Part shown: positions 60 through 48,052 of the stretch, piece after piece
Position numbering within the stretch: position 1 is the stretch's first letter
Layout: each line of letters opens with the position of its first letter
Assembly (NCBI GenBank): GCA_964016885.1
Contig: OZ024752.1
Location: forward strand, 20,708,001 to 20,772,000
Direction of reading: 5' to 3'
Length of the DNA: 64,000 nt
Source: Eledone cirrhosa
Lineage: Eukaryota
Made by a program: the position numbers and the translations under genes
Notes under the pieces: generated by a model
Seen by the model: the letters and a program-made list of their open reading frames with translations, nothing else
What the model was told of the DNA's origin: nothing
The model's database searches: none

Positions 60-96
<37 letters not shown>

Positions 97-120
97 ACAT
101 ATACATATATATATACAAAT

Positions 121-154
<34 letters not shown>

Positions 155-1720: not shown

Positions 1721-1757
<37 letters not shown>

Positions 1758-3243: not shown

Positions 3244-3278
<35 letters not shown>

Positions 3279-3739: not shown

Positions 3740-3774
<35 letters not shown>

Positions 3775-5095: not shown

Positions 5096-5144
<49 letters not shown>

Positions 5145-5269
5145 CATATATATATACATACAAATATATATATACATATATATATATATACATATATATA
5201 TACATACATATATATATACATACAAATATATACATATATATATATATATACACACATATATATATACAC

Positions 5270-5300
<31 letters not shown>

Positions 5301-9684: not shown

Positions 9685-12600
9685 GCCATACAATAATATA
9701 TTGTGAGGTAACCCCTTAACCACACTGTCATACAATAATATATTGTGAGGTAACCCCTTAACCACACTGCCATACAATAATATATTGTGAGGTAACCCCT
9801 TAACCACACTATCATACAATAATATATTGTGAGGTAACCCTTTAACCACACTGTCATACAATAATATATTGTGAGGTAACCCCTTAACCACACTGCCATA
9901 CAATAATATATTGTGAGGTAACCCCTTAACCACACTATCATAGAATAATATATTGTGAGGTAACCCCTTAACCACACTGTCATACAATAATATATTGTGA
10001 GGTAACCCCTTAACCACTTGTCATACAATAATATATTGTGAGGTAACCACTTAACCACACTGTCATAATATATTGTGAGGTAACCCCTTAACCACACTGT
10101 CATAATAATATATTGTGAGGTAACCCCTTAACCACACTGTCATATAATATATTGTGAGGTAACCCCTTAACCACACTGTCATACATTAATATATTGTGAG
10201 GTAACGCCTTAACCATACTGTCATACAATAATATATTGTGAGGTAACCACTTAACCACACTGTCATATAATATATTGTGAGGTAACCCCTTAACCATACT
10301 GTCATACAACAATATATTGTGAGGTAAGACTTTAACCACACTGTCATACAATATATTGTGACAGTTCCTGTATGAGCAAGGCATGGTCAGCAGACCAGAC
10401 ACTGCCCACAACAGGACAACCCGTCTAACCCATGCTAGCGTGGAAGAACGGACATAAAAACGATGATGATGAGGTAACCCCTTAACCACACTGTCATACA
10501 ATAATATATTGCGAGGTAACCCCTTAACCACACTGTCATAATATATTGTGAGGTAACCCCTTAACCACACTGTCATACAATAATATATTGCGAGGTAACC
10601 CCTTAACCACACTGTCATATAATATATTGTGAGGTAACCCCTTAACCACACTGTCATAATATAGTGTGAGGTAACCCTTTAACCACACTGTCATACAATA
10701 ATATTTTGTGAGGTAACCCCTTAACCACAATGTCATAGAATATATTGTGAGGTAACCCCTTAACCACACTGTCATACAATAATATATTGTGAGGTAACCC
10801 CTTAACCAAATTGTCATACAATATATTGTGAAGTAACCCCTTAACCACACTGTCATACAATAATATATTGAGGTAACCCCTTAACCACACTGTCATACAA
10901 TAATATATTGTGAGGTAACCCCTTAACCACTCTTATATAATATATTGTGAGGTAACCCCTTAACCACACTGTCATACAACAATATATTGTGAGGTAACCC
11001 CTTAACCACACTGCCATACAATAATATATTGTGAGGTAACCCCTTAACCACACTGTCATAATATATTGTGAGGTAACCCCTGAACCACACTGTCATACGA
11101 TATATTGTGAGGTAACCCCTTAACCACACTGTCATATAATATATTGAGGTAACCCCTTAACCACAATGTCATAATATATTGTGAGGTAACCCCTTAACCA
11201 CACTGTCAAATAATAATATATTGTGAGGTAACCCCTTAACCACACTGTCATACAATAATATATTGTGAGGTAACCCCTTAACCACTCTTATATAATATAT
11301 TGTGAGGTAACCCCTTAACCACACTGTCATACAACAATATATTGTGAGGTAACCCCTTAACCACACTGTCATACAATAATATATTGTGAGGTAACCCCTT
11401 AACCACACTGTCATAATTTATTGTGAAGTAACCCCTTAACCACACTGTCATAACATTATGAGGTAACCCTTTAACCACACTGTCATACAATAATATATTG
11501 TGAAGTAACCCCCTTAACTACACTCTCATAGAATAATATATTGTGACGTAACCCCTTAACCACTTGTCATACAATATATTGTGAGGTAACCCCTTAACCA
11601 CAGTCATACAATAATATATTGTGAGGTAACCCCTTAACCACACTGTCATACAATAATATATTGTGAGATAACCCCTTCACCACACTGTCATATAATATAT
11701 AATGAGGTAACCCCTTAACCACACTGTCATACAATAATATATTGAGGTAACCACTTAACCACACTGTCATATAATATATTGTGAGGTAACCCCTTAACCA
11801 CACTGTCATATAATATATTGTGAGGCAACCCCTTATCCACACAGTCATACAACAATATATTGTGAGGTAAGCCCTTAACCACACTGTCATACAATAATAT
11901 ATTGTGACAGTTCCTGTATGAGCAAGGCATGGTCAGCCGACCAGACACTGCCCACAACAGGACAACCCGTCTAACCCATGCTAGCGTGGAAGAACGGACG
12001 TAAAACGGTGATGATGAGGTAACCCCTTAACCAGACTGTCCTAATATAGTGTGAGGTAACCCTTTAACCACACTGTCATAATATATTGTGAGGTAACCAT
12101 TTAACCACACTGTCATACAATAATATAGAGGTAACCCCTTAACCACACTGTCATACAATAATATATTGTGAGGTAACCCCTTAACCACACTGTCATAATA
12201 TATTGTGAGGTAACCCCTTAACCACACAGTCATATAATAATATATTGTGAGGTAACCCCTTAACTACACTGTCATACAATAATATATTGTGAGGTAACCC
12301 CTTAACCACACTGTCATAATATATTGTGAGGTAACCCCTTAACCACACTGTCATATAATAATATATTGTGAGGTAACCCCTTAACCACACTGTCATACAA
12401 TAATATATTGTGAGGTAACCCCTTAACCACACTGTCATAATATATTGAGGTAACCCCTTAACGACACTGTCATAATATATTGTGAGGTCACCCCTTAACC
12501 ACACTATCATAATAATATATTGTGAGGTAACCCTTTAACCACACTGTCATAATAATATATTGTGAGTAACCCCTTAACCACACTGTCATACAATAATATA

Positions 12601-13180
12601 TTGTGAGGTAACCCCTTAACCACACTGTCATACAATAATATATTGTGAGGTAACTCCTTAACCACACTGTCATACATTAATATATTGTGAGGTAACCCGT
12701 TAACCACACTGTCATATATATTGTGAGATAACCCTTTAACCACACTGTCATAATATATTGTGAGGTAACCCCTTAACCACACTGTCATACGATAATATAT
12801 TGTGAGGTAACCCCCTTAACTACACTGTCATATAATAATATATTGTGAGGTAACCCCTTAACCACACTGTCATAATATATTCTGAGGTAACCCCTTAACC
12901 ACTTATATAATATATTGTGAGGTAACCCCTTAACCACTGTCATAATATATTGTGAGGTAACCCCTTAACCACACTGTCATATAATAATATATTGTGAGGT
13001 AACCCCTTAACCACACTGTCATATAATAATATATTGAGGTAACCCCTTAACCACACTGTCATATAATATATTGTGAGGTAACCCCTTAACCACACTGTCA
13101 TATAATAATATATTGTGAGGTAATCCTTTAACCACACTGTCATATAATAATATATTGTGAGGTAACCCTTTAACCACAGC
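9685..13180. repeat. Minisatellite, 37-42-bp unit (tcatacaataatatattgtgaggtaaccccttaaccacactg), roughly 80 copies, in VTI1A intron 4
   Basis: Directly visible tandem units, with two embedded SINE fragments (10362-10472, 11908-12017). Confidence 0.97.
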
Positions 13181-22974: not shown

Positions 22975-23068
22975 CTCCATGTGATATAGTTATTTTACCA
23001 ATAAGATGAGTTATATCAGCAGTTAGTGTAGAATATTGCTGTTCATAAGACTCCAATAATGAAGTCAT
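22975..23068 (-). CDS. VTI1A: VTI1A coding exon 1, MTSLLESYEQQYSTLTADITHLIGKITISHG
   Basis: ATG in a caacATG context and GTaagt donor. 94 nt; VTI1A-like N-terminus (YEQ..LTA.IT). Confidence 0.93.
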
Positions 23069-23196
23069 GTTGGTGATGACAACAACTTGTGTAGACGGCG
23101 TAAACTACTTCCGCTAAGCCTCTTTCTCGCCAACGACATTAAGGTGGCTACACTGCTCTCATCCTTATCAGGTTTTTATCATTAAACATCGTAAGT
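23069..23196. promoter_or_regulatory. Compact bidirectional VTI1A/RPL34 promoter: ETS-type ACTTCCG (23107-23113), TCT motif CTCTTTCT (23120-23127), probable non-coding RPL34 exon 1 (~23122-23190) with GTAAGT donor
   Basis: Matches the YYC+1TTTYY ribosomal-protein initiator. The RPL34 ATG sits directly after an acceptor AG, so an upstream exon is required. Confidence 0.6.
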
Positions 23197-25358
23197 ATTC
23201 GTTATTTTTTTTAATCTACAAATTATCTTATTTTATTTAACATTCACTTAACTATATATTTATGGCTATTTTATAAACATATGTCTATGTTTCTCTTCAA
23301 TATTCAGATTATTTCAAAGCGTGTCTACTTCAATCATCATAAAATAACTCGCACATTTCCTATTTTAACATTAATTTAAAAAGTTTTTTCACCCTTAATA
23401 TTAATTCAGTATTTTATCGGATATTAAATCATATAAAATATTGTAAAAGAAAAATAAACTGATAATCTAACTATATTAAAAAACGCTGCTTTGAAGACTA
23501 AAAAGCATGTATTTCTGTTCTCGGATCTTAAATTTGAGTCACGATTGTAAAATAAAATCATTTAAATGTAATTTATATGTGAAAAATATATAATTGTTCA
23601 TAAAATTATAATATAAAATGCTCTGAAAGTCTTGAATATCCGCATGTTTAATAACAATATATAATGTAATAAACTGTTTTAATTGTGAAATCGCCATTAA
23701 ATATAATAACCCAAACCTTTTTAACTTTCGGTTAGAATATTTAAAGACCACTTCACGGGGGCAATTGTAAAAATTAGCCATGTTTTCTGTTTAACTCTTT
23801 GGTAGCATTTCAATATCCATCCCACGTGTCTATCTTGGTGGACACAGTCGAGCGACATGCTAGAAAGAGCAGCCAAATATCTCTGAAACTGCACGCTCTC
23901 TTTAAAAGTATTGCATCGGTGATAGATTTCGAAATAAAATGAAAACATCCCATTACATTAACCCTGCTCATTTCGTATGCATCGCTCATTCAAATATGGA
24001 ATCACGGATCACCTTTGAAGAAAATCAAAATATCCTTTCTGATTCCTCACCTATATACGCATTACCTCATCGACTTAGTTGAGATATTTTTTATTTTATC
24101 CAAAGAAGATTTATTATCAACTGATGTCCTATATACACACGAGCCAGTGAGAGAACCTCATCTATAATTCTAACGTCTGTACATAACGAATCGAGTATCT
24201 CGATTTTGATATATTTCGAGATATTGTCAAGGATTCTCTAACTCATCCAAACAACATTTTGTGTAATTGATACAAAAATTCATTTCAATTGTTTTGTATG
24301 ATATAGTCGTCGTGCGCTGCACTTTCCTGACTAACAACTTTATTTTATTTACATAAAGCTTGATTGAAGTGTTAAATTTATAAATGTAACTCTGTAACAT
24401 ATTTGAAGAATAGTTTAACCACCTTCCCTCTTTAAAGATATTTTATTTAGTAAGTTAGATACATTGGATTAAATTAAGCTACTCTGATATCTAAGGATAT
24501 TTTTACTTATTAATGTAGATACACTGGAGTAAATTAAGGCCCCCGTGTAGTGGAGAAGAATTAAGGAGAGAATGAAAACTAGAAATCGCCTGATAAATTA
24601 AAAAAAATATACTATTATTTCAAGTCACCTCCCAAACGAGTATGAGGTTAACTTTGCCTTTCATCCTTTCAAGATCGATAAAATAAAACAGCAGTAATGC
24701 ACTGGGATAGTTGCTGGCTTTGTGCCAACAGTAGAATTTATTTTAAATTACAATTATTGTTATTTCCCTGTACAGAAAGTACACTTTCAAAGTAAACTTT
24801 AATAAAATCAAAAACCTAAATGTTCTTAGTTTTGTTTCCCTGTATACGGTCTCACAAGAATACGGAAGCTGTCTTCATGCTACAACAATAGGGAACTTCT
24901 ATACTTGAGTTCTTGCGAAACTTTCATTCTACTTTCGGACAATGCATCGAGTGTGGCAGCTGCCAAGTTATCCTCAAACTATAGATTTAGCTTATTAGTT
25001 GGATTGCGGTTCGACATATATCCAATAATGGAGAAACGTACAGTTTTAGTGATTTCAGTATATTATGGGAAGCAACAGAAAGCATCTTAACCTACCTAAA
25101 ACTTATGTGGGTTGGAGATCATCCACAATCTGTGATATTAGAATTCCAACAAAAATACTATGTTTAATTGTTGAGATTCTTCAGGTATATATGTGGCCAG
25201 CACCAGGAAGTCTCAATATATTGGGTATATGCCAGGATTGTCTTGTAAGTAGTTTATCTCTGATCTGGAGCTCTTTCATTCATACATGACTCTTCATACT
25301 TGTATACATCTCACCAACTCTTCTTCAGTAGAATTTCATTGACTTTTTCTGTTTCTAG

Positions 25359-25423
25359 ATGACTCAGAGACTTACATTCAGACGTCGATTGTCTTACAAT
25401 ACCAAGTCAAACCGAAGAAAGGT
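25359..25423 (+). CDS. RPL34: RPL34 (eL34) first coding exon, MTQRLTFRRRLSYNTKSNRRK(V)
   Basis: tttctAG|ATG start and GTaagt donor. Clear eL34 N-terminus. Confidence 0.97.
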
Positions 25424-26167
25424 GTAAGTAATTGAAATCGTCTCTACACGTCTCATTTTCTGTTTTACAGTGTTGTGTCTAATTTAGAGATCACTTGTTT
25501 TTTACCTGTCATGTTAGTAACCTTAGTATATATACACACACACGTGTACAAATATCATCACACTTAATTTTTAATTTCAATAATTGTATATAAATCGACC
25601 AATCACATTATTTGTATTTTCATATATATAGCACACCAAGTCAGCATTACATTTTTGAGTACTAACATGGCTACCATTTCAAGCGAAAAACATGCTAATA
25701 TCATTTTTTTTCACAAGGAAGGTTATTCTCAAGTGCCAAACATCTGTACGATTGGGTGTATCTAAGACTGATGTTCAAAAATTAATATTGCTCCCAAAAC
25801 ATTGACAGCTGTGGGGTTATCACTATATGGGTCACTGTTGATGCCACAGCTATTTTGACCTAGGTTGAGAGGAAAAGGGTTATGGAAGACAATTTATAAT
25901 ATAAATCTTTCTCTGTCTTCATTAATTTAATGTTTTACAGTTAGGTTTTTCTGTAACCATAAGATAAATTGCCCTATTTACTTTTGTAATTTTCTGTTAG
26001 GGCAGCACAAATTAGGAAGATAACACTGTTGAGTTGTCATTATTTAATGGAAATTTATCGTTTCCTTGAGAATTCAATTAATTATTAAAATTAAGTATTT
26101 ATGTCATAAATAAATGAATGTTTAATGCTTGTTTTCATTTCTTTTCTGTGGTGATGAACATAAACAG

Positions 26168-26181
26168 CTCCAAGACCCCTG
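26168..26181 (+). CDS. RPL34: RPL34 14-nt micro-exon, (V)SKTP(G)
   Basis: cAG|CTCCAAGACCCCTG|GTgagt. Supplies the conserved KTPG and restores the frame. Confidence 0.92.
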
Positions 26182-26218
26182 GTGAGTATTCTATTGATCC
26201 TTTTGATTTTAAATCTTA

Positions 26219-27018
26219 TTAGACTACCCATGACCCAATGGTTCACAGGTATTTTTATTGCTAGAAATAGCAGTAACTTTCTGATGCGGACAGAAGTCTA
26301 TACACACACATGATGATGATGACTATTTTTATATATATGTATTCTATGTCTTGCCTCCCATGGGCCTTCCAATTTAATTTTACAATATATATGTGTCTTA
26401 AACTTGACTGCACTAAGGCTTTTCGGAAATGAAACAACGGTAAGTGCTCTGGCGATCTGATTGGTTATCACAAAGCTGTTGTCTATTTATGAAGGTACCC
26501 GGAAAAACCCTGTATCTCAAGAATCCGTGCTCTGATTTATGTGAAATTTGTTTTCCATTTCAGAGGCAATTTCCTTTCAAAGTATTTTCCCATTATGTGT
26601 CGTTTTGGCTGTATTAAATTACAGACAAGCACACAAATCACAGAGTTTTGGTAGTATACTAGACCACCCGTGACCCGTTGGGTCCCATTCACTTAAAAAT
26701 AATTTTTGAATAATTAAAATATACACAGACATGTATATAACGTGAAATGAAACTGGAAGGCCCATATATATATGTGTTTGTATACATATATATATACACC
26801 ACCAGCTCTCTGTCTCCTCTCCTCTCTATGTCTCTCTTTCAATCTACTCTCTCTCTCTATGAAGGTGCCTGGAAAAAAAACATATCTCGGGAACCCGTGC
26901 TTCGATTTACTCGAAACTTGTTTTATCCGTTTCAGGGTCAACTTCCTTTCAAAGTATTTTCCCATTTGGTTGTATAGACAAGCAAGCAAGCTATCACAGA
27001 GTTTTAGTAGTATATAGA
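26219..27018 (-). mobile_element. Two head-to-tail non-autonomous Helitron-like units (26219-26657, 26659-27018)
   Basis: On the minus strand the second unit has a 5' TC and a hairpin plus CTAG 3' end. 26486-26657 is a diverged copy of 26857-27013. Confidence 0.55.
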
Positions 27019-27828
27019 TAGATAGGCATGGCTGTGTGGTTAAGGAGTTTGTTTTGCTACCATGTGTGGTTTTAGGCACAGTCCTTCAGCGTAACACTTT
27101 GGATATGTGTATTCTCTCTTTGACCAATGCTTTGTGAGTGTAATTTGGTAGGTAGAAGCTGTTGAAATATGATAGGTGTGTCTACACATTTACTGACCCC
27201 TATTTGTAGAACTGAACAGTTCTACAAATAGGGGTCAATGTGATTGACTAAATTCCTTCAAATTTGATTACAGTCTAATGACTAAAACCAGTAAAATATA
27301 TTAGCTGTATATTGAGAAATCTGTGCCAACTTGACCAGATGATGTTGCAATGGTCTATTTTCTGATATTACAATTGACTATTTGTTAGATATGAAATTGA
27401 TTTCACTTAATGAAGAATTTTGAGGGATTTAAGGTAGATTTATATTTAAATAGGAACCTTTCAAAATGGATAGTTTCATAAAACCAGAATCGTTTTTGAC
27501 TGGGTTGGAATCAAAAAGGCTAATCTTCATTTCAAAATCCCTAATGATCCATTTTAGATATGTATATGTCTACTAGAAAATATATAAAATTGAATATATC
27601 TGTTTGGGATAATAGCTTGAATCTTAAACCCCTGGGCAATAAATGACCAAATTTAGTACTGTTGCTATACATGACCTAGGCGAAATACACATCAAATTGT
27701 CCTAAAATGTTGAGATTTACATCCTCAGTAATTCCGTTACAATTTTCACAATGGAAATATTTGTTTATTACATGCCTACAGCTTTAAAAATATGAGAATA
27801 TCACTTGTTTCTTTTTTATTTATTTCAG

Positions 27829-27908
27829 GTGGTAAACTTGTTTATCTGTATGTAAAGAAACTTGGAACAATACCTAAATGTGGTGACTGCAAGGAGCCCT
27901 TGAGAGGG
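27829..27908 (+). CDS. RPL34: RPL34 exon, GKLVYLYVKKLGTIPKCGDCKEPLRG
   Basis: tttcAG acceptor and GTacgt donor. 80 nt, contains the CxxC. Confidence 0.96.
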
Positions 27909-28615
27909 GTACGTTAAATCAATAAGTTTATGAAAAGTAAAGTAAGATTGTAAAAACTTAGTATAAAAGTATAGAATGTTGAGATTATTATGTAGAAAAT
28001 TGTGGAGTATTTTATGGTTGAATAGAAACAATTTTTGAGAATGATGCTTTTTATTCAATTCCAAAACACCAACTTCAGTATGGAAGCACACAAGTTTGTG
28101 TGACAACTTTTATTAGAAAAGGTGGTTGCCAGCTTTTAACCCATGTACACTATATCACTGCTGGAACACTCCTATAATTTTGCTCGCTCTCCTCTTCCTT
28201 CATAGGGGCTAATATAGTCTAGAGCAAGGGTCTGAAACATTTGGCCTACTGCAGAACAATTTTCATGACTTGATAATTCGTCACTGCAAGATTCCTTTCC
28301 ATTTTTTCACTGAGCTCATCCAATCATTGATACACTAAATAATGTGCATTTGATTGCAATTTATTAAAAATGGAAATGGGAAAATAGAAATTTATCAAAA
28401 ATAAAAACAATTATGGAAAGTTTATTCCAAGTATCTGACATTTTTTTTATTGGTTTTTTTTTTTCAATCAAAATTTTTTAAAAGATTTATTGGAAAGAAT
28501 ATTTGAAAATATATATATATACTTATCTTATCTAGTCATGGGTTTTGCCATATATACTTTATGTAAGTAACATGGGGGTACTTGTAGTTATTTTTGTATT
28601 CTTTGTTTGATTCAG

Positions 28616-28719
28616 ATCACTCCAGCCAGACCCATCAAATGGATGTCTATGTCCAGACGACATAAGAAGGTATCCCGGGCATATGGAGGTTCTAGGTGTC
28701 ACCAGTGTGTTAGAAACAG
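28616..28719 (+). CDS. RPL34: RPL34 exon, ITPARPIKWMSMSRRHKKVSRAYGGSRCHQCVRN(R)
   Basis: ttcAG acceptor and GTatat donor. 104 nt, VSRAYGG signature. Confidence 0.97.
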
Positions 28720-29736
28720 GTATATATGTGTTTGTTAGCTATAAATTTCTCATTGCACCCACTGCGCCCAGCTTCATTTTATTCAATTTAACAATATCAG
28801 TGTAGTTGTTTCCTGAAAGGGTCAGTTGGATGTCAATATTGACAGTAGATTGTATCTAAATAGTTACACGAGTATTGTGTTCAGCTTTATATTTTTATTG
28901 ATTCATGCCTTTTGGTTCTGTGAAAATGCAAATGAAGATTGAGTGTAGAGTTCTGAGATATTTCTTCTTTTGAAATATGTATATCAATGGTGATTTCAGC
29001 ACAGACTTTGCCCAGGTAGTCCAACTCTTAAGTCATGTCATCATCATCATCATCATCATCATCATTTCATTTGACGTCCACTTTTTCCCTGCTTGCAAGG
29101 GTGGGATGTATGGATGTATAATCACACATATTTATATTACTAGTGAACCTGCACTGTCATAATTGACAGTGATTTGCATGTATATTAAGTTATTCATATA
29201 TACAAGGCATATGCAAAGGAATGGGAAACAATCTCTGGAATTCAAAGCTTTGATAATTGATGATTTAACCCTTTAGCATTTAAACTGGCCATGTTCGGCC
29301 AGAATTTTCTCACCTCTTTCAGTTCAAACTGGCTGTAACCAGCCACCCATACTTATGTTAAGATATTGTTCTTAAAATAAATAATGCCAAAATCTCAGAT
29401 TCGATATTGTGTAAGATAAAGCCTTTATCATGAAAATACAATAGTATATATAGAGTAACGTTAAAGTGGAAGAAAAAGCTTTTCTAGGTGGATGGATAGG
29501 ATAACATTAGAATCCTTCTAAATATATATTGTTTGGAAATTAGAGATCAATATTATATCATATGTTGGTATATTACTTGCATTTACTATTATATAAATTT
29601 TTGGTTAGTTCATTGATATAATAAAGCAATTTTATGAAGATATAAATTTATGCATTAATATGAGAAAATAAAGCATGAAATTTACATGAATCCTGTTGGT
29701 AGTTATAGGTTGTAAAAGTTTGGGTGTCATTGAATT

Positions 29737-29810
29737 TGTCAAATATGATGACTTAAGCACTGGGCTATGACTAAATATCTGATTCTAACGTGCTTTACTG
29801 ATCTTTGACA
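29737..29810 (+). ncRNA. SNORD88: Box C/D snoRNA copy 1, SNORD88/snR76-like
   Basis: Box C ATGATGA 29745-29751, guide AGCACTGGGC, D' ATGA, box D CTGA 29798-29801, terminal stem tgtcaaa/tttgaca. Confidence 0.88.
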
Positions 29811-30163
29811 TATAAATGATGGCAATTAAGTTAATATCACAGTGACCAATGTTAAATGTGAAATTATGACTAGTTTTCCACTGTAGCACTTCTGTCAAGT
29901 ATAAGATTATTGAGATAAATGTTTATGGCCAATGAATTCTATGTCAGCCAAATGACATAATCAATATATGGTTTGCCTTTTAGCATTCACATTAATTTGT
30001 CAAATGTCATGTTTATCTATTCACATTATTTTCAGTTAATCCCGCCGAGGTTAACTTTGCCTTTCATCCTTACGGGGTCGATAAAATAAAGTACCAGTAA
30101 TGTACTGGGTAATTGCTGGCCTTGTGCCTAAAGTAGAAACAATTATTTTCAGTTAATCATTTA

Positions 30164-30346
30164 GGCGGTGGATTGGCAGTATCGGTAGAGGGTCGGACGC
30201 CATGCTTTGCAGCAAAGAGTTACGGCGCTTTACGATCTGAGTTCAAATCCCCCGGTTAACTTTGCCTTTCATCCTTACGGGGTCAATAAAATAAAGTACC
30301 AGTAATGTACTGGGTAATTGCTGGCCTTGTGCCTAAAGTAGAAACA
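30164..30346 (+). mobile_element. Full-length tRNA-derived SINE, preceded by a 5'-truncated copy (30042-30141)
   Basis: A box TGGCAGTATCGG at 30174 and B box GAGTTCAAATCC at 30239. Flanked by the 17-bp repeat attattttcagttaatc. Confidence 0.85.
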
Positions 30347-30435
30347 ATTATTTTCAGTTAATCATACTCAAGGGGGTTATCAATGTTATTTGTTTGTAAT
30401 TTTCTATGTACAGACTTGATGTTTTGTCAGATGTT

Positions 30436-30958
30436 TAACCCTTTAGCATTTAAACCAGCCATATCCAGCCAGAATTCTCACATCTTTCTGTTCAAACCAG
30501 CTGTAAATGGCTACTCATACTTATGTTAAGGCATTCTTCTCAAAATAAATAGTATCAAAATCTCAGATTTAATATTATGTGAAATAAAGTGTTTACCGTG
30601 AAAATACAATAGTATATATAGAGTCATCATCGTCATTTTACGTCCGCTTTTCCCTGCTTGCAAGGGTGGGACGGGAACTGATTCTGGCTTGATTTCTACA
30701 GCTGGATGCCCTTCCTAACACCAACCTCATTTACAGTGAGTGCCGGGTGCTATTTTGCAGTGGAATGATATGGACCCCAATCCCTATCATCTCATTTCTA
30801 CAGCTGAGTAAACTGGAGCAATGTGAAATAAAGTGTCTTGCTCAAGGAAACAACACAACACCCGGTCTGAGAATTGAACTCACAACCTTTCGATTGCAAG
30901 CCCAATGCTCTAACCACTAAGCCATGTGCCTCCAGTAATGTAAATGCTAAAGGGTTAA
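30436..30958. mobile_element. piggyBac-type MITE (TTAA-CCCTTTAGCATTTA termini) with a nested minus-strand tRNA-SINE (30624-30933)
   Basis: Terminal inverted repeats bounded by TTAA. The nested SINE closely resembles 59865-60206. Confidence 0.75.
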
Positions 30959-31555
30959 GGGCAATGTACTGGTTAATTCTATTAAGAATTCAACATTTCT
31001 TACAAAACTTGAATTTATCCTCTAAAATCTAAATCATTTTAGTTCAAACAACTGGACCATTAATATTAATAAACTGATTTACTGTAAATAAATTTTGTCT
31101 GAGTTTCTGAAATGGGCAATTATTATTATATCTTTACGGGGTCAATAAAATACAGTACCAGTCACGCTGATCAGAAAAGTGTCAAAATGAATACAGGTCA
31201 TCAAAACACAACCAACAAATTCATTTTAGAATAGATTTTTATTTTAACCACCTTGCCCTGAAACTTTTTTACTTTCTAAAAAGTAATTGTTTTAAGCATC
31301 AGATTTAAAATAAGCAAAAAAAAAAAAAATGCAAATAATTTTTTTTTATTTTTAAATTAAATGTTTGCCAATTTGATCAAAATTCTATAAGAAGTTAAAT
31401 AGAACAGGAGATAAATTGTTGTTTTGGAAGATTCATTATATATAATGAATCTTCCAAAACAACAATAGGATTCACACACGCATGAGCGGAATATCACGTG
31501 TCTCATTATTTGGTTATAAAAGACGGATTATTTTGTGTATTGTACGCTCAGTATT

Positions 31556-31586
31556 TGATTCTAGCGTACTTCTCTGATTTTTGACA
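31556..31586 (+). pseudogene. Decayed 3' half of the same C/D snoRNA
   Basis: tgattctagcgtacttctCTGAtttttgaca aligns to tgattctaatgtgcttcaCTGAtttttgtca. Box C and the guide are absent. Confidence 0.55.
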
Positions 31587-32557
31587 TGGTTCTTTATATT
31601 TTACTACAAACGGGTTCATCATCATTGTCGTCTTTACGTCCGCTTTTCCACATTTGCATGGCTCTGACAGGTCGTTTTCAGCACAGCCAAAGTATTTATA
31701 TTTATCTAAAAATTTTCCATCGTGGTCTTATTTTTATGTTATGTTTCTAACACCAGCTCAATAATGAAAAAAGTTAGTTATATTACTAAATCTTTCCAGA
31801 TTCATAATTATTTCCAAAATCATAGGCAATGTCTTTAGAAATAATGGTAGAAAAAGGGTTAATCCAGGTTTGCACCTGAGTTTAATTTTTTGTTTTACTT
31901 TATTCCTTCATGTCAAGTCACCTGAATCAACCTATATCTTCTGGTGTCTGTTAAGTGAGACTCATTTAGAGGCTACTCAACAACACAGAGGCTGTTAGAG
32001 CACTTGCTGACATATTTGTCAAATTCAATATATTGGAAGAGTGTTGGTGACATGTCAAAAAGCATCCAGTCTAACCTGTTGGATGGTCGTTTTGGTGCCA
32101 TGATAAAAAGTAACATGGTTGGGTTTAGGAAAGGCATCCATCTGTAGAAACCAAACCAAAATACAGATCCATATGAGCATGCTGGTCTACAGGCATGACT
32201 TGTCACAACGTGACAACCCGTCTAACCCATGCAAGCGTGGGAAAATGAGCATTAAATGATGTCCAGAGAACATCAATGTTGGGTGACTTTACATCGGTCA
32301 GTCTAGTAAATAGTCTTCTCAAACAGCAGTAGATAGTTCCTGAATCTTGGATGGACTATGTCTAATTGCAATAGAAAACAATTCACTACGTTTTACAGGA
32401 TTTAAAGAATTTTAGTATTCAGTTTTGCACAGCTCTTACCAAAGTGTCATGAATTATGATCTTAAATGTATGTTCAGTTAAAAAAGATGGTAAAATTAAG
32501 TGTAAAAGTCTGATAGATATATGTTGTAAAAGACAATTTGGAGGTCATTGAAATTAC

Positions 32558-32630
32558 TTGATCAAATATGATGACTTAAGCACTGGGCTATGACTATCTG
32601 ATTCTAATGTGCTTCACTGATTTTTGTCAA
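32558..32630 (+). ncRNA. SNORD88: Box C/D snoRNA copy 2
   Basis: Box C 32568-32574, same guide, box D 32617-32620, terminal stem present. Confidence 0.88.
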
Positions 32631-34156
32631 GTTTATATTTCACTGTAACTAATTTTTGATAATTTGATTGCTTGTGCATGGGCAGGCATAATGGCTTGAA
32701 CAAACCATCTAAAAATATGAATCATCATTATTTAACTTCTGTTAGACAGGTCTACGTAGACCAAGTCAGTATTGAAGCAGGGCTACTGACTCTCAGACAA
32801 GCTGAGGGGTCTGCATCTCACATATGGTCATACATTTTTCCAAGTGCAGAGAAGTTATATCTTTTGACACAAATTGAAGTGTCCTCCCGGCCTCTTGTTT
32901 GGCAAGTTCCTAACACTAACTACTTTACAATGTGTACTACAAATAGTTTGGCAATTTATATTTGCACTTATCTTTCACCCTGTTCCTTCAAATTGACCTA
33001 TATCCAATACAATTGCTCTGTATTTGTCAATACCTGAATAAGATGTCTGTCAACTCATGTATAGGATTTATAATCCATTGGTTAACATACTTCTAATGAG
33101 ATACATTGCTTATGATTTTCAAATTGTTTTGAAAAGATTTAGTAATATAACTAGCTCTCCCATAATTAACCCTTTAGCATTTAAATTACTCTATATTTAC
33201 TATTGTATTTTCACGGTAAACATGTTATCTCGCATAATATCGAATCTGTGAGATTTTTATATTTATTTTGACATAACTATAAGTAGCCTGCTACGGTTGG
33301 TTTGTGCAGAAAGCGATGAGAAAATTCTGGCCAGATACGTCCGGTTTAAAACTTGAAGGTTCTTACATAAAATTATGAAACATTTAAAATAAAAATATAC
33401 AGATTTGTGTCATGGAACGGGGGCAGGTATCAGAAGCATTACAACTGGTTGCCCAGAAGATATATGTATTGCCATGGTGAGAATATAGTTAGGGGCTTCA
33501 TAATACATTCTAAATTATTTTGGTGAAAACTCCTCAAGCTCCATGTGTCAGAACCTCAATATTTTGGGATTGTGTTTCACAGGAGTTATGTATTCATTGT
33601 ACCAGTCATATCACTATTTACTTACACCAACCTTTTGAACTAGTTGTAAATTATTCATGTAAAGATTAAGTGGTTAAAATTCTAGCAGTAAATTTAATTA
33701 GGTGCTCTATGCTCAATAATGGGTCTTCTCAATCGGTATGGGCAGCCAGTTACAGCTGGTTTGAATAGAAGGGTGAGAGAAATTTGGTCGGATACAGCCA
33801 GTTTAAAGGGTTAAAATTTCAGTATAACACTAAGCTTTTTTATACTAAACCACTCTTGCTTCTATAATGCATCCAATACAATAGCCTTGTGTATACCCTA
33901 ATGAGGTTCGTCTCTCAACCCATGTATAGGATTATGTTCATCCATTTGTTATACTTCTAATGAAAAGGTGATTAAACTGTTAGCTTCTTATAAATTTAAT
34001 GAGGTTTTCTTTGCTTAATTGTACCAATATTCTACTATGGCCAATACATTTGTGTCTCTTATAGAAAGGGGTGAGTTATTGTTGTGTCTAAATTAACAAA
34101 GCATAGTTAGGTAGGGGTTGTGTTAGGTTATAATATGCTGCAATTTATGTGTCAGT

Positions 34157-34220
34157 TAAATATGATGACTTTAAGCACTGGGCTATGATTGAATGATTCT
34201 GATGTGCTTCACTGATTTCT
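34157..34220 (+). ncRNA. SNORD88: Box C/D snoRNA copy 3 (variant B)
   Basis: Box C 34162-34168, box D 34212-34215, guide AGCACTGGGC. Confidence 0.85.
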
Positions 34221-35086
34221 TGCATACATTGTATATACTTCCTATGACTCTGATTTTTGACATGGTTCTTTACATTTCACTACAAATGGGTTGTTTTATG
34301 TGGCAGTGGTCTGGCATAGACAGCCATAAGTGTTTGTTCCATCTAAAGTATATATATAGATAAAACTATTGAAGTTATACCCATCTTGTTAATCTGGGTT
34401 TCTTTGCTTCCTTCTTCAGTCAGAGAATCAATTTGTATTGACTGAGGTGTGTTAGTAGAGGAGTTAGACACATTCCACCAGTTGTTGGTCTACTGATTTA
34501 TGTAACAATTGTAGCTATGCCTTCAGTGGATAACCAATTAATAGTAAATTTAATATTCATTCCAACATGGTCACTGCTGAATACTCTTCTAGGATATCCA
34601 TTGTCAGATATTTTCGAATGATTATCTTTGTGCATAAATACACGCACAATCTTCTTGGGGGAGAAAGGATGGTGACATGTAGGCTCAATCCATCCATTGT
34701 CTTGAGATGATGACTATCTTTATGTATAGACACACACACATTCTTCTTGGGAGAGAGATTGGTGAAATTTAGACTTGATCCATTCATTGTTAGATATCTT
34801 CAGATAATGATTATCTTGGTCTATAGGGACTAAGTTTCACAACAATAAGAATTTAATGGTCTAATACGAGAAATATAACTATTTTAATGTACAACTCAAT
34901 ATTTACCATCAATACTCACATTCACTAACCCCTTGTAGCTAGATTTGATTGGGATCACGTGTTCACATGACATTGTTTTATGTCCACTTCCCATACTGGC
35001 TGCATGGGTTGGACTAAGTATTGAAGTAGATACTTTACAATGTGATCAGCCCCTAGATTAATTAGTGTGGGTGTTATTGAATTACT

Positions 35087-35162
35087 CGGTCAACTATGAT
35101 GACTTAAGCACTGGGCTATGATTAAATATCTGATTCTAGTGTGCTTCACTGATATTTGACTG
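35087..35162 (+). ncRNA. SNORD88: Box C/D snoRNA copy 4 (variant A)
   Basis: Box C 35096-35102, box D 35149-35152, stem cggtcaa/ttgactg. Confidence 0.87.
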
Positions 35163-35969
35163 ATTCTATATTTAACTACCTAATTATTACACCAAAGGGG
35201 GGGGGGGTCTCTATATGTCATGGGTTTTTTTTTATATAGGGCAGTACTCAACTAATTAAAGAATATAACATCTAAAAGTCAAAGAATGATTTGAAATCTC
35301 ATGTCAACATTGTTGAGTTGGTTCTAACAAATTACAATACCTGTGTTTCAGTTAATTTTGAAATTAATGCAACAGCAAATTTGTCATGTCGTTTTAACTC
35401 TAGCATTTACATTACTCTATATTATTGTATGTTCACAGTAAAGGGCTTTACCTCATATAACTATCCCGCATAATATTGGATCTATGAGATTTTGATGTTT
35501 TTTTATTTTGAGAACAATACTTTAATGTCGGTATGGGCGGCCAGTTACAGCTGGTTTGAATAGAAGGGTGAGAGAATTCTGGTCGGATACAGCCAGTTTA
35601 AATGCTAAAGGGTTAAAATTTCAGTATAACACTAAGCTTTTTTATACTAAACCTTGTACTAAACTCTTGCTTCTATAATGCATCCAATACAATAGCCCTG
35701 TGTTAATACCCTAATGAGGTTCGTCTCTCAACCCATGTATAGGATTATGTTCATCCATTTGTTATACTTCTAATGAAAAGGTGATTAAACTGTTAGCTTC
35801 TTATAAATTTAATGAGGTTTTCTTTGCTTAATTGTACCAATATTCTACTATGGCCAATACATTTGTGTCTCTTATAGAAAGGGGTGAGTTATTGTTGTGT
35901 CTAAATTAACAAAGCATAGTTAGGTAGGGGTTGTGTTAGGTTATAATATGCTGCAATGTATGTGTCAGT

Positions 35970-36033
35970 TAAATATGATGACTTTAAGCACTGGGCTATG
36001 ATTGAATGATTCTGATGTGCTTCACTGATTTCT
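35970..36033 (+). ncRNA. SNORD88: Box C/D snoRNA copy 5 (variant B)
   Basis: Box C 35975-35981, box D 36025-36028, external stem caatgtatgt/gcatacattg. Confidence 0.85.
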
Positions 36034-36899
36034 TGCATACATTGTATATACTTCCTATGACTCTGATTTTTGACATGGTTCTTTACATTTCACTACAAAT
36101 GGGTTGTTTTATGTGGCAGTGGTCTGGCATAGACAGCCATAAGTGTTTGTTCCATCTAAAGTATATATATAGATAAAACTATTGAAGTTATATCCATCTT
36201 GTTAATCTGGGTTTCTTTGCTTCCTTCTTCAGTCAGAGAATCAATTTGTATTGACTGAGGTCTGTTAGTAGAGGAGTTAGACACATTCCACCAGTTGTTG
36301 GTCTACTGATTTATGTAACAATTGTAGCTATGCCTTCAGTGGATAACCAATTAATAGTAAATTTAATATTCATTCCAACATGGTCACTGCTGAATACTCT
36401 TCTAGGATATCCATTGTCAGATATTTTCGAATGATTATCTTTGTGCATAAATACACGCACAATCTTCTTGGGGGAGAAAGGGTGGTGACATGTAGGCTCA
36501 ATCCATCCATTGTCTTGAGATGATGACTATCTTTATGTATAGACACACACACATTCTTCTTGGGAGAGAGATTGGTGAAATTTAGACTTGATCCATTCAT
36601 TGTTAGATATCTTCAGATAATGATTATCTTGGTCTATAGGGACTAAGTTTCACAACAATAAGAATTTAATGGTCTAATACGAGAAATATAACTATTTTAA
36701 TGTACAACTCAATATTTACCATCAATACTCACATTCACTAACCCCTTGTAGCTAGATTTGATTGGGATCACGTGTTCACATGACATTGTTTTATGTCCAC
36801 TTCCCATACTGGCTGCATGGGTTGGACTAAGTATTGAAGTAGATACTTTACAATGTGATCAGCCCCTAGATTAATTAGTGTGGGTGTTATTGAATTACT

Positions 36900-36975
36900 C
36901 GGTCAACTATGATGACTTAAGCACTGGGCTATGATTAAATATCTGATTCTAGTGTGCTTCACTGATATTTGACTG
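36900..36975 (+). ncRNA. SNORD88: Box C/D snoRNA copy 6 (variant A)
   Basis: Box C 36909-36915, box D 36962-36965. Confidence 0.87.
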
Positions 36976-37781
36976 ATTCTATATTTAACTACCTAATTAT
37001 TACACCAAAGGGGGGGGGGTCTCTATATGTCATGGGTTTTTTTTTATATAGGGCAGTACTCAACTAATTAAAGAATATAACATCTAAAAGTCAAAGAATG
37101 ATTTGAAATCTCATGTCAACATTGTTGAGTTGGTTCTAACAAATTACAATACCTGTGTTTCAGTTAATTTTGAAATTAATGCAACAGCAAATTTGTCATG
37201 TCGTTTTAACTCTAGCATTTACATTACTCTATATTATTGTATGTTCACAGTAAAGGGCTTTACCTCATATAACTATCCCACATAATATTGGATCTATGAG
37301 ATTTTAATGTTTTTTTATTTTGAGAACAATACTTTAATGTCGGTATGGGCGGCCAGTTACAGCTGGTTTGAATAGAAGGGTGAGAGAATTCTGGTCGGAT
37401 ACAGCCAGTTTAAATGCTAAAGGGTTAAAATTTCAGTATAACACTAAGCTTTTTTATACTAAACCTTGTACTAAACTCTTGCTTCTATAATGCATCCAAT
37501 ACAATAGCCCTGTGTTAATACCCTAATGAGGTTCGTCTCTCAACCCATGTATAGGATTATGTTCATCCATTTGTTATACTTCTAATGAAAAGGTGATTAA
37601 ACTGTTAGCTTCTTATAAATTTAATGAGGTTTTCTTTGCTTAATTGTACCAATATTATACTATGGCCAATACATTTGTGTCTCTTATAGAAAGGGGTGAG
37701 TTATTGTTGTGTCTAAATTAACAAAGCATAGTTAGGTAGGGGTTGTGTTAGGTTATAATATGCTGCAATGTATGTGTCAGT

Positions 37782-37845
37782 TAAATATGATGACTTTAAG
37801 CACTGGGCTATGATTGAATGATTCTGATGTGCTTCACTGATTTCT
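37782..37845 (+). ncRNA. SNORD88: Box C/D snoRNA copy 7 (variant B)
   Basis: Box C 37787-37793, box D 37837-37840. Confidence 0.85.
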
Positions 37846-38709
37846 TGCATACATTGTATATACTTCCTATGACTCTGATTTTTGACATGGTTCTTTACAT
37901 TTCACTACAAATGGGTTGTTTTATGTGGCAGTGGTCTGGCATAGACAGCCATAAGTGTTTGTTCCATCTAAAGTATATATATAGATAAAACTATTGAAGT
38001 TATACCCATCTTGTTAATCTGGGTTTCTTCTCTTCCTTCTTCAGTCAGAGAATCAATTTGTATTGACTGAGGTGTGTTAGTAGAGGAGTTAGACACATTC
38101 CACCAGTTGTTGGTCTACTGATTTATGTAACAATTGTAGCTATGCCTTCAGTGGATAACCAATTAATAGTAAATTTAATATTCATTCCAACATGGTCACT
38201 GCTGAATACTCTTCTAGGATATCCATTGTCATATTTTCGAATGATTATCTTTGTGCATAAATACACGCACAATCTTCTTGGGGGAGAAAGGGTGGTGACA
38301 TGTAGGCTCAATCCATCCATTGTCTTGAGATGATGACTATCTTTATGTATAGACACACACACATTCTTCTTGGGAGAGAGATTGGTGAAATTTAGACTTG
38401 ATCCATTCATTGTTAGATATCTTCAGATAATGATTATCTTGGTCTATAGGGACTAAGTTTCACAACAATAAGAATTTAATGGTCTAATACGAGAAATATA
38501 ACTATTTTAATGTACAACTCAATATTTACCATCAATACTCACATTCACTAACCCCTTGTAGCTAGATTTGATTGGGATCACGTGTTCACATGGCATTGTT
38601 TTATGTCCACTTCCCATACTGGCTGCATGGGTTGGACTAAGTATTCATGTAGATACTTTACAATGTGGTCAGCCCCTAGATTAATTAGTGTGGGTGTTAT
38701 TGAATTACT

Positions 38710-38785
38710 CGGTCAACTATGATGACTTAAGCACTGGGCTATGATTAAATATCTGATTCTAGTGTGCTCCACTGATATTTGACTG
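38710..38785 (+). ncRNA. SNORD88: Box C/D snoRNA copy 8 (variant A)
   Basis: Box C 38719-38725, box D 38772-38775; gtgctcca variant upstream of box D. Confidence 0.85.
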
Positions 38786-39586
38786 ATTCTATATTTAACT
38801 ACCTAATTATTACACCAAAGGGGGGTGGGGGGTCTCTATATGTCATGGGTTTTTTTTTATATAGGGCAGTACTCAACTAATTAAAGAATATTACATCTAA
38901 AAGTCAAAGAATGATTTGAAATCTCATGTCAACATTGTTGAGTTGGTTCTAACAAATTACAATACCTGTGTTTCAGTTAATTTTGAAATTAATGCAACAG
39001 CAATTTTGTCATGTCGTTTTAACTCTAGCATTTACATTACTCTATATTATTGTATGTTCACAGTAAAGGGCTTTACCTCACATAACTATCCCACATAATA
39101 TTGGATCTATGAGATTTTGATGTTTTTTTTATTTTGAGAACAATACTTTAATGTCGGTATGGGCGGCCAGTTACAGCTGGTTTGAACAGAAGGGTGAGAG
39201 AATTCTGGTCGGATACAGTCAGTTTAAATGCTAAAGGGTTAAAATTTCAGTATAACACTAAGCTTTTTTATACTAAACCACTCTTGCTTCTATAATGCAT
39301 CCAATACAATAGCCCTGTGTTAATACCCTAATGAGGTTCGTCTCTCAACCCATGTATAGGATTATGTTCATCCATTTGTTATACTTCTAATGAAAAGGTG
39401 ATTAAACTGTTAGCTTCTTATAAATTTTATGAGGTGTTCTTTGCTTAATTGTACCAATATTCTACTATGGCCAATACATTTGTGTCTCTTATAGAAAGGG
39501 GGGAGTTATTGTTGTGTCTAAATTAACAAAGCATAGTTAGGTAGGGGTTGTGTTAGGTTATAATATGCTGCAATGTATGTGTCAGT

Positions 39587-39650
39587 TAAATATGATGACT
39601 TTAAGCACTGGGCTATGATTGAATGATTCTGATGTGCTTCACTGATTTCT
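39587..39650 (+). ncRNA. SNORD88: Box C/D snoRNA copy 9 (variant B)
   Basis: Box C 39592-39598, box D 39642-39645. Confidence 0.85.
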
Positions 39651-39689
39651 TGCATACATTGTATATATTTCCTATGACTCTGATTTTTG

Positions 39690-40410
39690 AAGTATCAACC
39701 AGGTGCAAATACTGGTTTAATTTTAAATACGTTGTTTTCGGCATAATACTTGATATATAAGGATCCAGTAATTCCAGTCTTGGAAATTGTTTTATACCGA
39801 ACATAATATTTATGGTAAAAAATGCTTGCATTTCCGCAGCATCTGTCAGTTGCCAAACAGATCGGGTTTTCCTCGATTTGAAATCTGTTGTTGGGCATAT
39901 CGATTAATCTTTTCTGCCACAACTTCGAAGAAAATTTGTGGTAAAAACAAAAAGAAATAATCCAGTGCTTTAGCATCGGGAGCTAATGTGTATTATGGAC
40001 CAGTATTTTGAATAAAATCGGGAACATATATTAGTGTGGTATTTTTCAATGGCGTCCTGGTTCACTTTCAAAACAAACATCGTCGGACGAAATTTCAGAA
40101 ATATAAACATCAGATTCATTTGAATTCACTAATATTATCATTTGCTTCTTGTTTATTCTGAATGTCGTCGTGTGTAAAACCTTCAAAGTCGGTATCGCTA
40201 CTTTCATAGTCCATGTTGATACCAAAAAAATTTTTTGTACTTTCAAAGTTAAAAAAAACACTTATTTTAAGTTGTTTCACTATATTTAGTGTTAATTTTT
40301 GCGGTAAGGGCCTAATCTCGCAGTAATCTCAAATTGATGATGATATGTTTCTTTTTAGAACAATTTTTTAATGTGGGTGTTATCGGGCGGTTTGAACACT
40401 AAAGGGTTAA
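39690..40410 (-). mobile_element. piggyBac transposon 5' fragment with degraded transposase
   Basis: TTAA-CCC terminus at 40410, an acidic N-terminal region, and MQAFFTINIMFGIKQFP...MPKTTYLKLNQYLHLVD resembling a PGBD transposase. Confidence 0.75.
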
Positions 40411-40559
40411 ACTGTCAGCTTCTTATAAATTTAATGAGGTGTTCTTTGCTCAATTGTTCCAATATTCTACTATGGCCAATACATTTGTGTCTAAATTAAC
40501 AAAACATAGTTAGGTAGGGGTTGTATTAGGTTATAATATACTGCAATGTATGTGTCAGT

Positions 40560-40623
40560 TAAATATGATGACTTTAAGCACTGGGCTATGATTGAATGAT
40601 TCTGATGTGCTTCACTGATTTCT
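40560..40623 (+). ncRNA. SNORD88: Box C/D snoRNA copy 10 (variant B)
   Basis: Box C 40565-40571, box D 40615-40618; lies in a partial copy of the 1.8-kb unit. Confidence 0.85.
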
Positions 40624-41089
40624 TGCATACATTGTATATACTTCCTGCACTGGTGGTTTCATGTTAGCTGCCTGTTTTACTATGTTATTATTTCCTTCTC
40701 CACATGTCACCTGTTTCAGTTAATTTTGAAAATAATACTTTTACCATGTGGTTTTAATTTTAGTATGAATACTAAGCTTTTTTTATTCTAAACCACTCTT
40801 GCTTCTATGATCCAAAGTTGTATATTTTTTTAAATGTTCATAATTTATCCTAAAACCTTCCATTATAGTTTTATGTAAGAAACTTTGTTCCAAACACTAG
40901 CTTAATAATGAAGTTATGTTGCTAAATTCCTCAAAATGTTTTTGTGTTGAAATTTACAATTTTTCCCTTCTACAGTTCTTTCCTGTTACTTGATAGAATC
41001 TTCAGTTGGCAACTGTATATCTCCTTAGATCCTCTCTATATTTATGTATAATTACTATAAAACAAATGTTTTTTTGTTTTTTTATATAG

Positions 41090-41168
41090 AATTGTGCGAG
41101 CTTTCCTCATTGAAGAGCAGAAGATTGTGGTCCGTGTGCTGAAGGCACAAGAAGGCATGAAAAAATAA
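41090..41168 (+). CDS. RPL34: RPL34 last exon, (R)IVRAFLIEEQKIVVRVLKAQEGMKK*
   Basis: tAG acceptor, RAFLIEEQKIV signature, TAA at 41166-41168. Total CDS is 342 nt (113 aa). Confidence 0.97.
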
Positions 41169-46267: not shown

Positions 46268-48052
46268 TATATACTGTAACACAGCAGTTCCAGGGCTACA
46301 ATATACTGTAACACAGGAGTGTCACAGATACAATATACTGTAACCCCAGTGCCACAGCTACAGTATACTGTAACACAGCTACAATATACTGTAACACAGC
46401 AGTGCCACAGCTACAGTATACTGTAACACAGCTACAATATACTGTAACACAGCAGTGCCACAGCTACAATATACTGTAACACAGCAGTGCCAAAGATACA
46501 ATATACTGTAACACAGCAGTGCCAAAGATGCAATATACTGTAACCCCAGTGCCACAGCTACAGTATACTGTAACCCCAGTGCTACAGCTACAATATACTG
46601 TAACATAGTAGTGCCACAGCTACAATATACTGTAACACAGCAGTGCCACAGCTACAGTATACTGTAACCCCAGTGCTACAGCTACAATATACTGTAACAC
46701 AGCTACAGTATACTGTAACCCCAGTGCTACAGCTACAATATACTGTAACATAGCAGTGCCACAGCTACAATATACTGTAACACAGCAGTGCCACAGCTAC
46801 AGTATACTGTAACCCCAGTGCTACAGCTACAATATACTGTAACATAGCAGTGCCACAGCTACAATATACTGTAACACAGCAGTGCCACAGCTACAGTATA
46901 CTGTAACCCCAGTGCTACAGCTACAATATACTGTAACAGTAATGCCACAGCTACAATATACTGTAACATAGCAGTGCCACAGCTAAAGTATACTGTAACC
47001 CCAGTGCTACAGCTACAATATACTGTAACATAGCAGTGCCACAGCTACAGTATACTGTAACCCCAGTTCCACAGCTACAATATACTGTAACCCCAGTACC
47101 ACAGCTACAATATCCTGTAACCCCAGTGCCACAGCTACAATATACTATAACACAGCAGTGCCACAGCTACAATATACTGTAACACAGCAGTGCCACAGCT
47201 ACAATATACTGTAATTCAGCAGTGCCACAGCTACAGTATACTGTAACCCCAGTTCCACAGCTACAATATACTATAACACAGCAGTGCCACAGCTACAATA
47301 TACTGTAACTCAGCAGTGCCACAGCTACAGTATACTGTAACCCCAGTTCCACAGCTACAATATACTATAACACAGCTACAATATACTGTAACCCCAGTTC
47401 CACAGCAACACTATACTGTAACATAGCAGTGCCACAGCTACAGTATACTGTAACATAGCAGTGCCACAGCTACAGTATACTGTAACCCCAGTACCACAGC
47501 TACAATATACTATAACACAGCAGTGCCACAGCTACAATATACTGTAACACAGAAGTGCCACAGCTACAATATTCTGTAACCCCAGTGCCACAGCTACAAT
47601 ATACTCTAACCACTACCACAGCTACAATATACTGTAACACAACAGTTCCACAGCTACAATATACTGTAACATAGCAGTTCCACAGCTACAGTATACTGTA
47701 ACACAGAAGTGCCACAGCTACAATATACTGTAACCCCAGTGCTACAGTATACTGTAACACAGCAGTGCCACAGCTACAATATACTGTAACCCCAGTACCA
47801 CAGCTACAATATACTGTAACACAGCTACAATATACTGTAACCCCAGTACCACAGCTACAATATACTGTAACACAGCAGTGCCACAGCTACAATATACTGT
47901 AATACAGCAGTGCCACAGCTACAATATTCTGTAACCCCAGTGCCACAGCAACACTATACTGTAACACAGCAACACTATACTGTAACAGAGCAGTGCCACA
48001 GCTACAATATTCTGTAACACCAGTGCCACAGCTACAATATACTGTAACACAT
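46268..48052. repeat. Minisatellite with 21/30/32-bp variant units (cagcagtgccacagctacaatatactgtaaca)
   Basis: Directly visible. Confidence 0.97.

Follow-up and report, generated by a model that had tools for sequence, protein, structure and literature searches.

Small nucleolar RNAs (snoRNAs) encoded in introns are, by the standard route, produced by trimming of the excised intron from both ends, and an intron with two snoRNAs gives rise to a snoRNA-related long non-coding RNA (sno-lncRNA) (PMC11028025). Several snoRNAs per intron are known from flies (PMC6619189), where the clusters are of the H/ACA class and the C/D genes lie one per intron (PMC3089462). Here we analyze a 64,000-nt stretch of the genome of the octopus Eledone cirrhosa (contig OZ024752.1, positions 20,708,001 to 20,772,000 of the forward strand; hereafter the window), in which ten box C/D snoRNA copies lie within the final intron of the ribosomal protein gene RPL34. 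An initial annotation of this DNA took one snoRNA per intron as the norm for animals, which agrees with how seldom annotated fly introns hold C/D clusters: among the fly Me18S and Me28S rows listed in Table S1 of PMC11028025, 92 of 98 are mono-intronic, three clustered and three intergenic, and 29 of the 30 fly cluster rows viewed in that table are intronic H/ACA. In Eledone, single introns habitually hold C/D snoRNA clusters in which families are mixed.

The Drosophila intronic clusters (PMC3089462, PMC6619189, PMC11028025) resemble those of the octopus in that a single intron of a ribosomal protein (RP) or other housekeeping gene harbors several snoRNAs, which are often paralogues. In contrast to the fly H/ACA clusters, the octopus ones are mainly of the C/D class, with up to ten genes per intron, mixed families and spacers of 0.3-3 kb. 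The yeast C/D clusters cut by Rnt1 (PMC10557570) are comparable as polycistronic C/D precursors that need endonucleolytic separation, but are fungal. Mammalian sno-lncRNAs, as from the Prader-Willi syndrome (PWS) locus and SLERT (PMC11028025), share the presence of more than one snoRNA per excised intron; however, they carry two end-cap snoRNAs, whereas the octopus introns hold many conserved internal copies that end-capping leaves unexplained. In sponges, snoRNA duplicates move to neighbouring introns (PMC3412847). No paper on cephalopod snoRNA organization was found in the literature searched, whose coverage excluded most subscription papers. The intronic snoRNA clusters of rice, reportedly described by Liang et al. 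in 2002, have a similar polycistronic C/D layout, but in a plant.

Ten box C/D copies in the last intron of RPL34

The last intron of RPL34 (28720..41089 of the window, + strand) is 12,370 nt long, runs from GT to AG and contains all ten copies, as the initial annotation had it. Its boundaries were set by the reading frame, not by reads, and the 113-aa frame is intact across the flanking exons. A search for box C followed by the guide found again the ten sense copies annotated before, all on the + strand. From box C to box D, they span 29745..29801 (c1), 32568..32620 (c2), 34162..34215 (c3), 35096..35152 (c4), 35975..36028 (c5), 36909..36965 (c6), 37787..37840 (c7), 38719..38775 (c8), 39592..39645 (c9) and 40565..40618 (c10), a length of 53-57 nt in every case. 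All ten copies were also seen in Rfam E-value mode, and c10 was in addition placed by alignment. A box C/D methylation-guide snoRNA was taken to begin with box C (RUGAUGA) and to end with box D (CUGA), to contain D' and C' boxes, and to carry immediately 5' of D or D' an antisense element to rRNA of at least 10 nt; all ten copies have perfect C and D boxes, an AUGA D' box and a C'-like motif.

The exact 10-nt guide occurs ten times in the window, against a mean of 1.39 in shuffled windows even with one mismatch allowed. Genome-wide, the pattern of box C plus guide was found at 23 places, namely the ten RPL34 copies and 13 scattered ones. Nine of these 13 carry one common repeated motif, and none of the five that were read has the boxes. 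Within the intron, the stretch 31500..31590 (+ strand) is, from its alignment and sequence, a likely decayed copy, in which C'-like and D motifs are retained and box C and the guide are lost.

Family assignment and 28S target

With the Rfam gathering cut-offs, no snoRNA was reported in the window. In E-value mode, the best snoRNA match of all ten copies is SNORD88 or snR76 (clan CL00071) at 21-25 bits, c1 reaching 24.9 bits with SNORD88, for which the cut-off is 46. The earlier assignment to the SNORD88/snR76 family is upheld at the level of the clan, and because the scores lie below the gathering cut-off the copies are filed here as SNORD88/snR76-like and not as formal Rfam members. The guide itself is identical, base for base, to the SNORD88 consensus.

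The 10-nt guide is a perfect complement of the genome's own 28S and ends one base before D'. The complement was found in all four of the 28S copies read, so that the pairing proposed earlier applies to the host itself. As proposed also, the D'+5 rule leads to the third C of the target, which is paired with the guide base five positions ahead of D'. SNORD88 guides human 28S Cm3701 (PMC5597630) and snR76 guides yeast L2197, position 2197 of the 25S (PMC3116282), in agreement with the site that had been named; the equivalence to human 3701 is based on the guide match together with PMC5597630. The RPL34 copies are predicted to guide 2'-O-methylation of this one conserved 28S cytidine. Family and target of these snoRNAs are ordinary. 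Compared to human SNORD88A/B/C (RF00604) and yeast snR76 (RF01209), the D' guide and its flanking bases follow the SNORD88 consensus, including a short motif ahead of box D; however, the RPL34 copies are shorter, score below the cut-offs and are ten in one intron.

The motif ahead of box D was considered as a second guide or an extra site of rRNA pairing, but in predicted folds it is probably better accounted for by base-pairing to the first bases of the guide. Complements of 8-9 nt to 28S in the flanks of c1 were treated as chance. It is noted that the 28S matches in this genome (L021-L024) are 5.1-6.3 kb long, compared to a 3.4-kb model, and that three of the four copies cease to match the first at the end of the conserved stretch downstream of the target, perhaps because of insertions.

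Four old types and one recent tandem array

The copies c3 to c9 all lie inside a tandem repeat (33733..39690, + strand), defined by self-BLAST and unit alignment, with 3.3 units of about 1.81 kb that start at 33733, 35528, 37340 and 39154 and carry two snoRNAs per unit. The units are 98-99% identical, with 10-18 substitutions per ~1,800 nt, and the unit body has a single location genome-wide, the RPL34 intron. Type 3 is represented by c3 and its tandem copies c5 and c7, as well as by c9 within the partial last unit; type 4 is represented by c4, its tandem copy c6, and c8, which has a single substitution ahead of box D. An interspersed repeat of ~200 nt at each unit junction suggests unequal crossing-over, and the seven tandem copies, which probably arose in this way at that repeat, do not each have to be under selection. 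Outside the array, c10 is also of type 3 and lies in an older 240-nt partial duplicate (40407-40646); its core is exactly the c3-type core, and the nearest 40-nt flanks are 86-93% identical. Taking the tandem gain and this older duplicate together, four old types remain: c1 (type 1), c2 (type 2), the c3-type and the c4-type. The number ten is an inflated count, through one recent tandem gain of seven copies, and it matters less for this reason than the habitual occurrence of mixed-family clusters. The divergence of spacers and flanks that the initial annotation saw among all copies is real for the four old types; it does not extend to c3 to c9, which are near-identical, or to c10.

The array is known from the assembly alone, and its units are similar enough for collapsed or over-expanded reads to have produced it, in which case the true number of copies would be about five. 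The alignment of the units, however, has 51 variable columns, mostly substitutions outside homopolymers, and a 9-nt indel that unit 1 shares with unit 4 and that sets both apart from units 2 and 3, a pattern that fits real unequal crossing-over. We consider such an assembly artefact very unlikely, and even then four or five distinct copies would stay in one intron.

In the comparison of the four old types, 31 of the 32 columns in boxes and guide do not vary; in the rest of the core this holds for 13 of 26 columns (Fisher p=3e-5), and in the flanks for 23 of 92. The cores of these types are 83-93% identical, while the 200-nt flanks, taken beyond the nearest 40 nt, are 50-58% identical, with a random baseline of 51%. 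The same contrast is seen in RPS8, RPL7A and RPL4, with cores at 73-98% and flanks at 47-70%. Intactness of the copies is not automatic, because one apparent copy has decayed. Selection on the RNA, as claimed before for all ten copies, is supported for the four old types, in which boxes and guide are kept in unrelated flanks, and is not claimable for the seven near-identical tandem copies.

Some smaller features accompany the array and the old types. The ~200-nt repeat looks by eye like a miniature inverted-repeat transposable element and is found in both orientations, at 29264-29464, 30434-30627, 33172-33350 and 35398-35617 as well as at the unit junctions; a truncated copy opens the tandem array. 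In each full unit, a second D-like motif lies 3' of the type-3 copy (34240-34295 in the window), with a flank like that of the decayed copy at 31500-31590. It is perhaps another remnant, and the Rfam snR76 matches reach into it. A short motif 15-25 nt 5' of box C is common to c1, c2 and c4 (29720-29736, 32544-32556 and 35072-35084), with downstream partners that differ; it is possibly a processing signal or just the trace of a younger duplication.

Multi-snoRNA introns in other genes

The multi-snoRNA layout is not special to the RPL34 intron. With an intronic snoRNA cluster defined as at least two sense-strand snoRNA genes in one intron, clusters are present in RPL34, RPL7A, RPL4 and RPS8 of the same genome. 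RPL4 was reached through searches with the SNORD18 family and RPL7A with the SNORD36 family, and their exons were mapped with named octopod proteins; an RPL4 exon is 99% identical to an Octopus vulgaris protein, and the best match of RPL7A is from Argonauta. By this comparison, the exons flanking the RPL7A and RPL4 clusters join in frame.

A 12-kb intron of RPL7A (C21:20574530-20586500) holds about ten snoRNA-like genes of four families, all below Rfam cut-offs: six SNORD53/92-like, two SNORD103/85-like, one weak SNORD24/snoR124-like and one SNORA50-like H/ACA. The SNORD53/92-like copies have a 12-nt guide to the genome's own 28S. A fragment of a C2H2 zinc finger is found inside this intron as well (L032:3027-3173). 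A later RPL7A intron (L031:1130-5460) carries two SNORD24-like genes and one SNORD36, the last above cut-off; a guide-pattern search of SNORD36 type gave no match, while the family search did find this gene. In RPS8, one intron (L037:4824-7521) contains a single C/D snoRNA in five copies, and another (L037:7698-L038:923) contains two further families with four and two members, one of the four being assigned by eye only. The flanking RPS8 exons cover Pfam positions 34-69 and then 67-106, and the second junction is presumably continuous from the reading of its frame and from the eS8 sequence. RPL4 (L029:5847-L030:3270) has four SNORD18 copies, of which two are alone in introns and two share one.

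Across RPL34, RPL7A, RPS8 and RPL4, 35 of 37 C/D-like genes share an intron, in a sample that is biased to snoRNA-rich hosts and in which most genes score below Rfam cut-offs. A snoRNA scanner gave 9, 3, 2 and 10 sense candidates in the first four regions compared to 0, 0, 1 and 0 antisense, and eight sense and no antisense candidates in RPS8; over the four genes and the U14 locus described below, the antisense number was 0-1. No C/D cluster was found in RPL3 (one H/ACA-like match), RPS3A or a putative L13-family locus on contig C21, where the scanner returned no more than noise, at 0-2 candidates in sense and 0-3 in antisense.

Six copies of U14 (SNORD14) lie within 2.5 kb on contig C5 (L026:3689-6233, - strand). 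They are of two alternating types, with the closest 131 nt apart, and the array follows two other C/D-like genes; lone U14-like copies are found on contigs C3 and C4. The six copies were left out of the single-intron clusters because their host looks non-coding. For c1, DNA contigs of three other organisms cover positions 29700-29810 of the window, two contigs in each with a variant base, at summed depths of 61, 22 and 12 compared to 14, 2.7 and 2.6 for nearby single contigs. This hints that the RPL34 snoRNA is multi-copy in relatives, contig depth being no measure of copy number.

Proposed release of the snoRNAs from the intron

Whole snoRNA families in RPL7A and RPS8 are confined, or nearly so, to the interior of their clusters, and three of the four old RPL34 types are internal in the intron. 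For conserved internal copies to be freed, the intron has to be either spliced or cut between neighbours, and their presence, for several C/D families and in highly expressed RP introns, calls for an exit route other than the standard sequence of splicing, debranching and end trimming, which yields one snoRNA per intron. We favor release of the RPL34 copies from the one intron as separate RNAs via cuts between the copies, and from the sequence features described here we give this reading a probability of roughly 0.55. Each copy would close a long flanking stem and bind the core proteins without a nearby branch point. An endonuclease, for which an RNase III-type enzyme or EndoU is a candidate, would then cut the spacers, since no internal copy is freed when a debranched intron is trimmed from its ends, and exonuclease trimming would follow. 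Given such a cutting route, local duplication within an intron would be tolerated and copy number would drift upward.

Trimming from the ends alone would instead yield a sno-lncRNA, or one mature snoRNA per transcript by chance breakage, with the internal copies being surplus or acting within the long RNA. Mammalian two-snoRNA introns do yield sno-lncRNAs (PMC11028025), and the seven copies of the tandem gain are too young for visible selection. On the other hand, the internal old copies are no less intact than the end copies, and the internal families of RPL7A and RPS8 would under this reading have no source of mature RNA in these genes, which makes this alternative distinctly improbable.

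The stems expected for release by cutting were evaluated from the flanks. Duplexes of the 25-nt flanks are stronger than 95% of the background in 14 of 20 copies tested from RPL34 and the other genes, with five of the 20 kept in although their ends are off by one base. For the RPL34 copies, the terminal stems of c1, c4 and c10 have p values of 0.006-0.05, and those of c2 and c3 are weaker (p 0.07 and 0.14). The last snoRNA is 99-725 nt away from the 3' splice site, at >250 nt in five of six introns and usually 270-725 nt; the end of box D in c10 is 471 nt upstream of the RPL34 3' splice site. Mammalian C/D genes are said to lie about 70 nt from the branch point, and Hirose and Steitz reportedly found that long stems permit assembly far from it.

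Splicing between the copies has also been considered. If the gaps contained hidden poison exons, which are non-coding, or sites of recursive splicing, each snoRNA could sit in its own sub-intron, on a minor path degraded by nonsense-mediated decay (NMD), and the one-per-intron rule would be kept. NMD-coupled host isoforms occur in vertebrates. Plausible AG...GT pairs are present in many gaps, with 15 of 26 scoring >5.5, the two gaps of the RPL34 tandem unit included, and the mono-intronic state of 92 of 98 annotated fly methylation guides (PMC11028025) is in line with such a rule. However, the gaps as a whole score the same as snoRNA-free intron (median 5.2 and 4.6, n=19 and 31, p=0.17, from a weak model of 14 donors and 16 acceptors), and seven of 26 score no higher than 3.5. 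The flanks between old copies have no conserved blocks away from the snoRNA, the RPS8 gaps are just 290-570 nt long, and the closest U14 copies on contig C5 leave only their 131 nt. We regard hidden exons as unlikely, if less so than trimming from the ends alone.

Several points weigh against release by cuts between the copies. The two gaps within the RPL34 tandem unit have hidden-exon scores of 7.2 and 8.1, which is the range of true sites. Of five RPL34 copies, only two exceed the background at p<0.05 when 45-nt flanks are used, and two to three when the flanks are 25 nt long. No shared cleavage signal was identified between the copies. The human EndoU homologue is described without demonstrated snoRNA excision in the review PMC10557570. 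None of the RPL34 copies reaches the Rfam cut-offs of 46 (SNORD88) and 55 (snR76). Conserved cores in unrelated flanks could also come from short copying tracts or gene conversion. Finally, among four loci chosen by protein family alone, only one (RPS8) has clusters.

Endonucleolytic release of snoRNAs is described for yeast Rnt1 and frog XendoU (PMC10557570), and no human counterpart for Rnt1 is listed in that review. One EndoU-family gene is present in the Eledone genome, which shows only that a candidate cutter exists. More broadly, octopods may have dropped the rule of one C/D gene per intron genome-wide, a proposal that we put tentatively and at somewhat less than even odds. RP introns would then be polycistronic and carry as many as ten guides from mixed families, with a dedicated endonuclease step undescribed in animals, and snoRNA dosage would be uncoupled from intron number and amplifiable by tandem duplication. 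Copy-specific sequence tags at these loci make cutting and hidden splicing distinguishable, and the loci could lead to the enzyme with which animals cut clustered intronic snoRNAs apart.

The RPL34 host gene and other features of the window

The five coding exons of RPL34 give an uninterrupted 113-aa eL34 frame with GT..AG introns by frame check, and three of the four exons scanned have Pfam L34e matches to successive stretches of the profile. A non-coding first exon (23143..23190, start approximate) is supported by the spliced joint 23190>25359, the short side of which has 47 letters. The exon with the start codon (25359..25423) matches L34e positions 1-21 and is followed by a 14-nt micro-exon (26168..26181), seen as the letters between two joint sides and confirmed by the frame. 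The next coding exons, 27829..27908 and 28616..28719, match L34e 28-53 and 54-87, the former with joints and the latter, just 5' of the snoRNA intron, with its incoming joint. The last coding exon through the stop codon (41090..41168) is placed by the frame and has no Pfam match of its own. All these exons are on the + strand.

The joints come from contigs of run X4, which were compared over 23000-31300. This run is not recorded as RNA, yet spliced RPL34 joints are present in it, and its contigs bear out the upstream joints and the micro-exon. Its depth over c1 is low, which is uninformative. Among the 15 joints listed out of about 4,000, none departs from 28719, a result that speaks neither for nor against hidden exons.

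A tRNA-like match on the minus strand at 30867-30924, within the snoRNA intron, is probably the head of a tRNA-derived short interspersed element, and similar partial tRNA matches were seen at other loci. Elsewhere in the window, positions 1-6317 form a 6.3-kb TA run, and 9668-13178 and 46269-48051 are minisatellites whose units measure about 40 and 31 nt.

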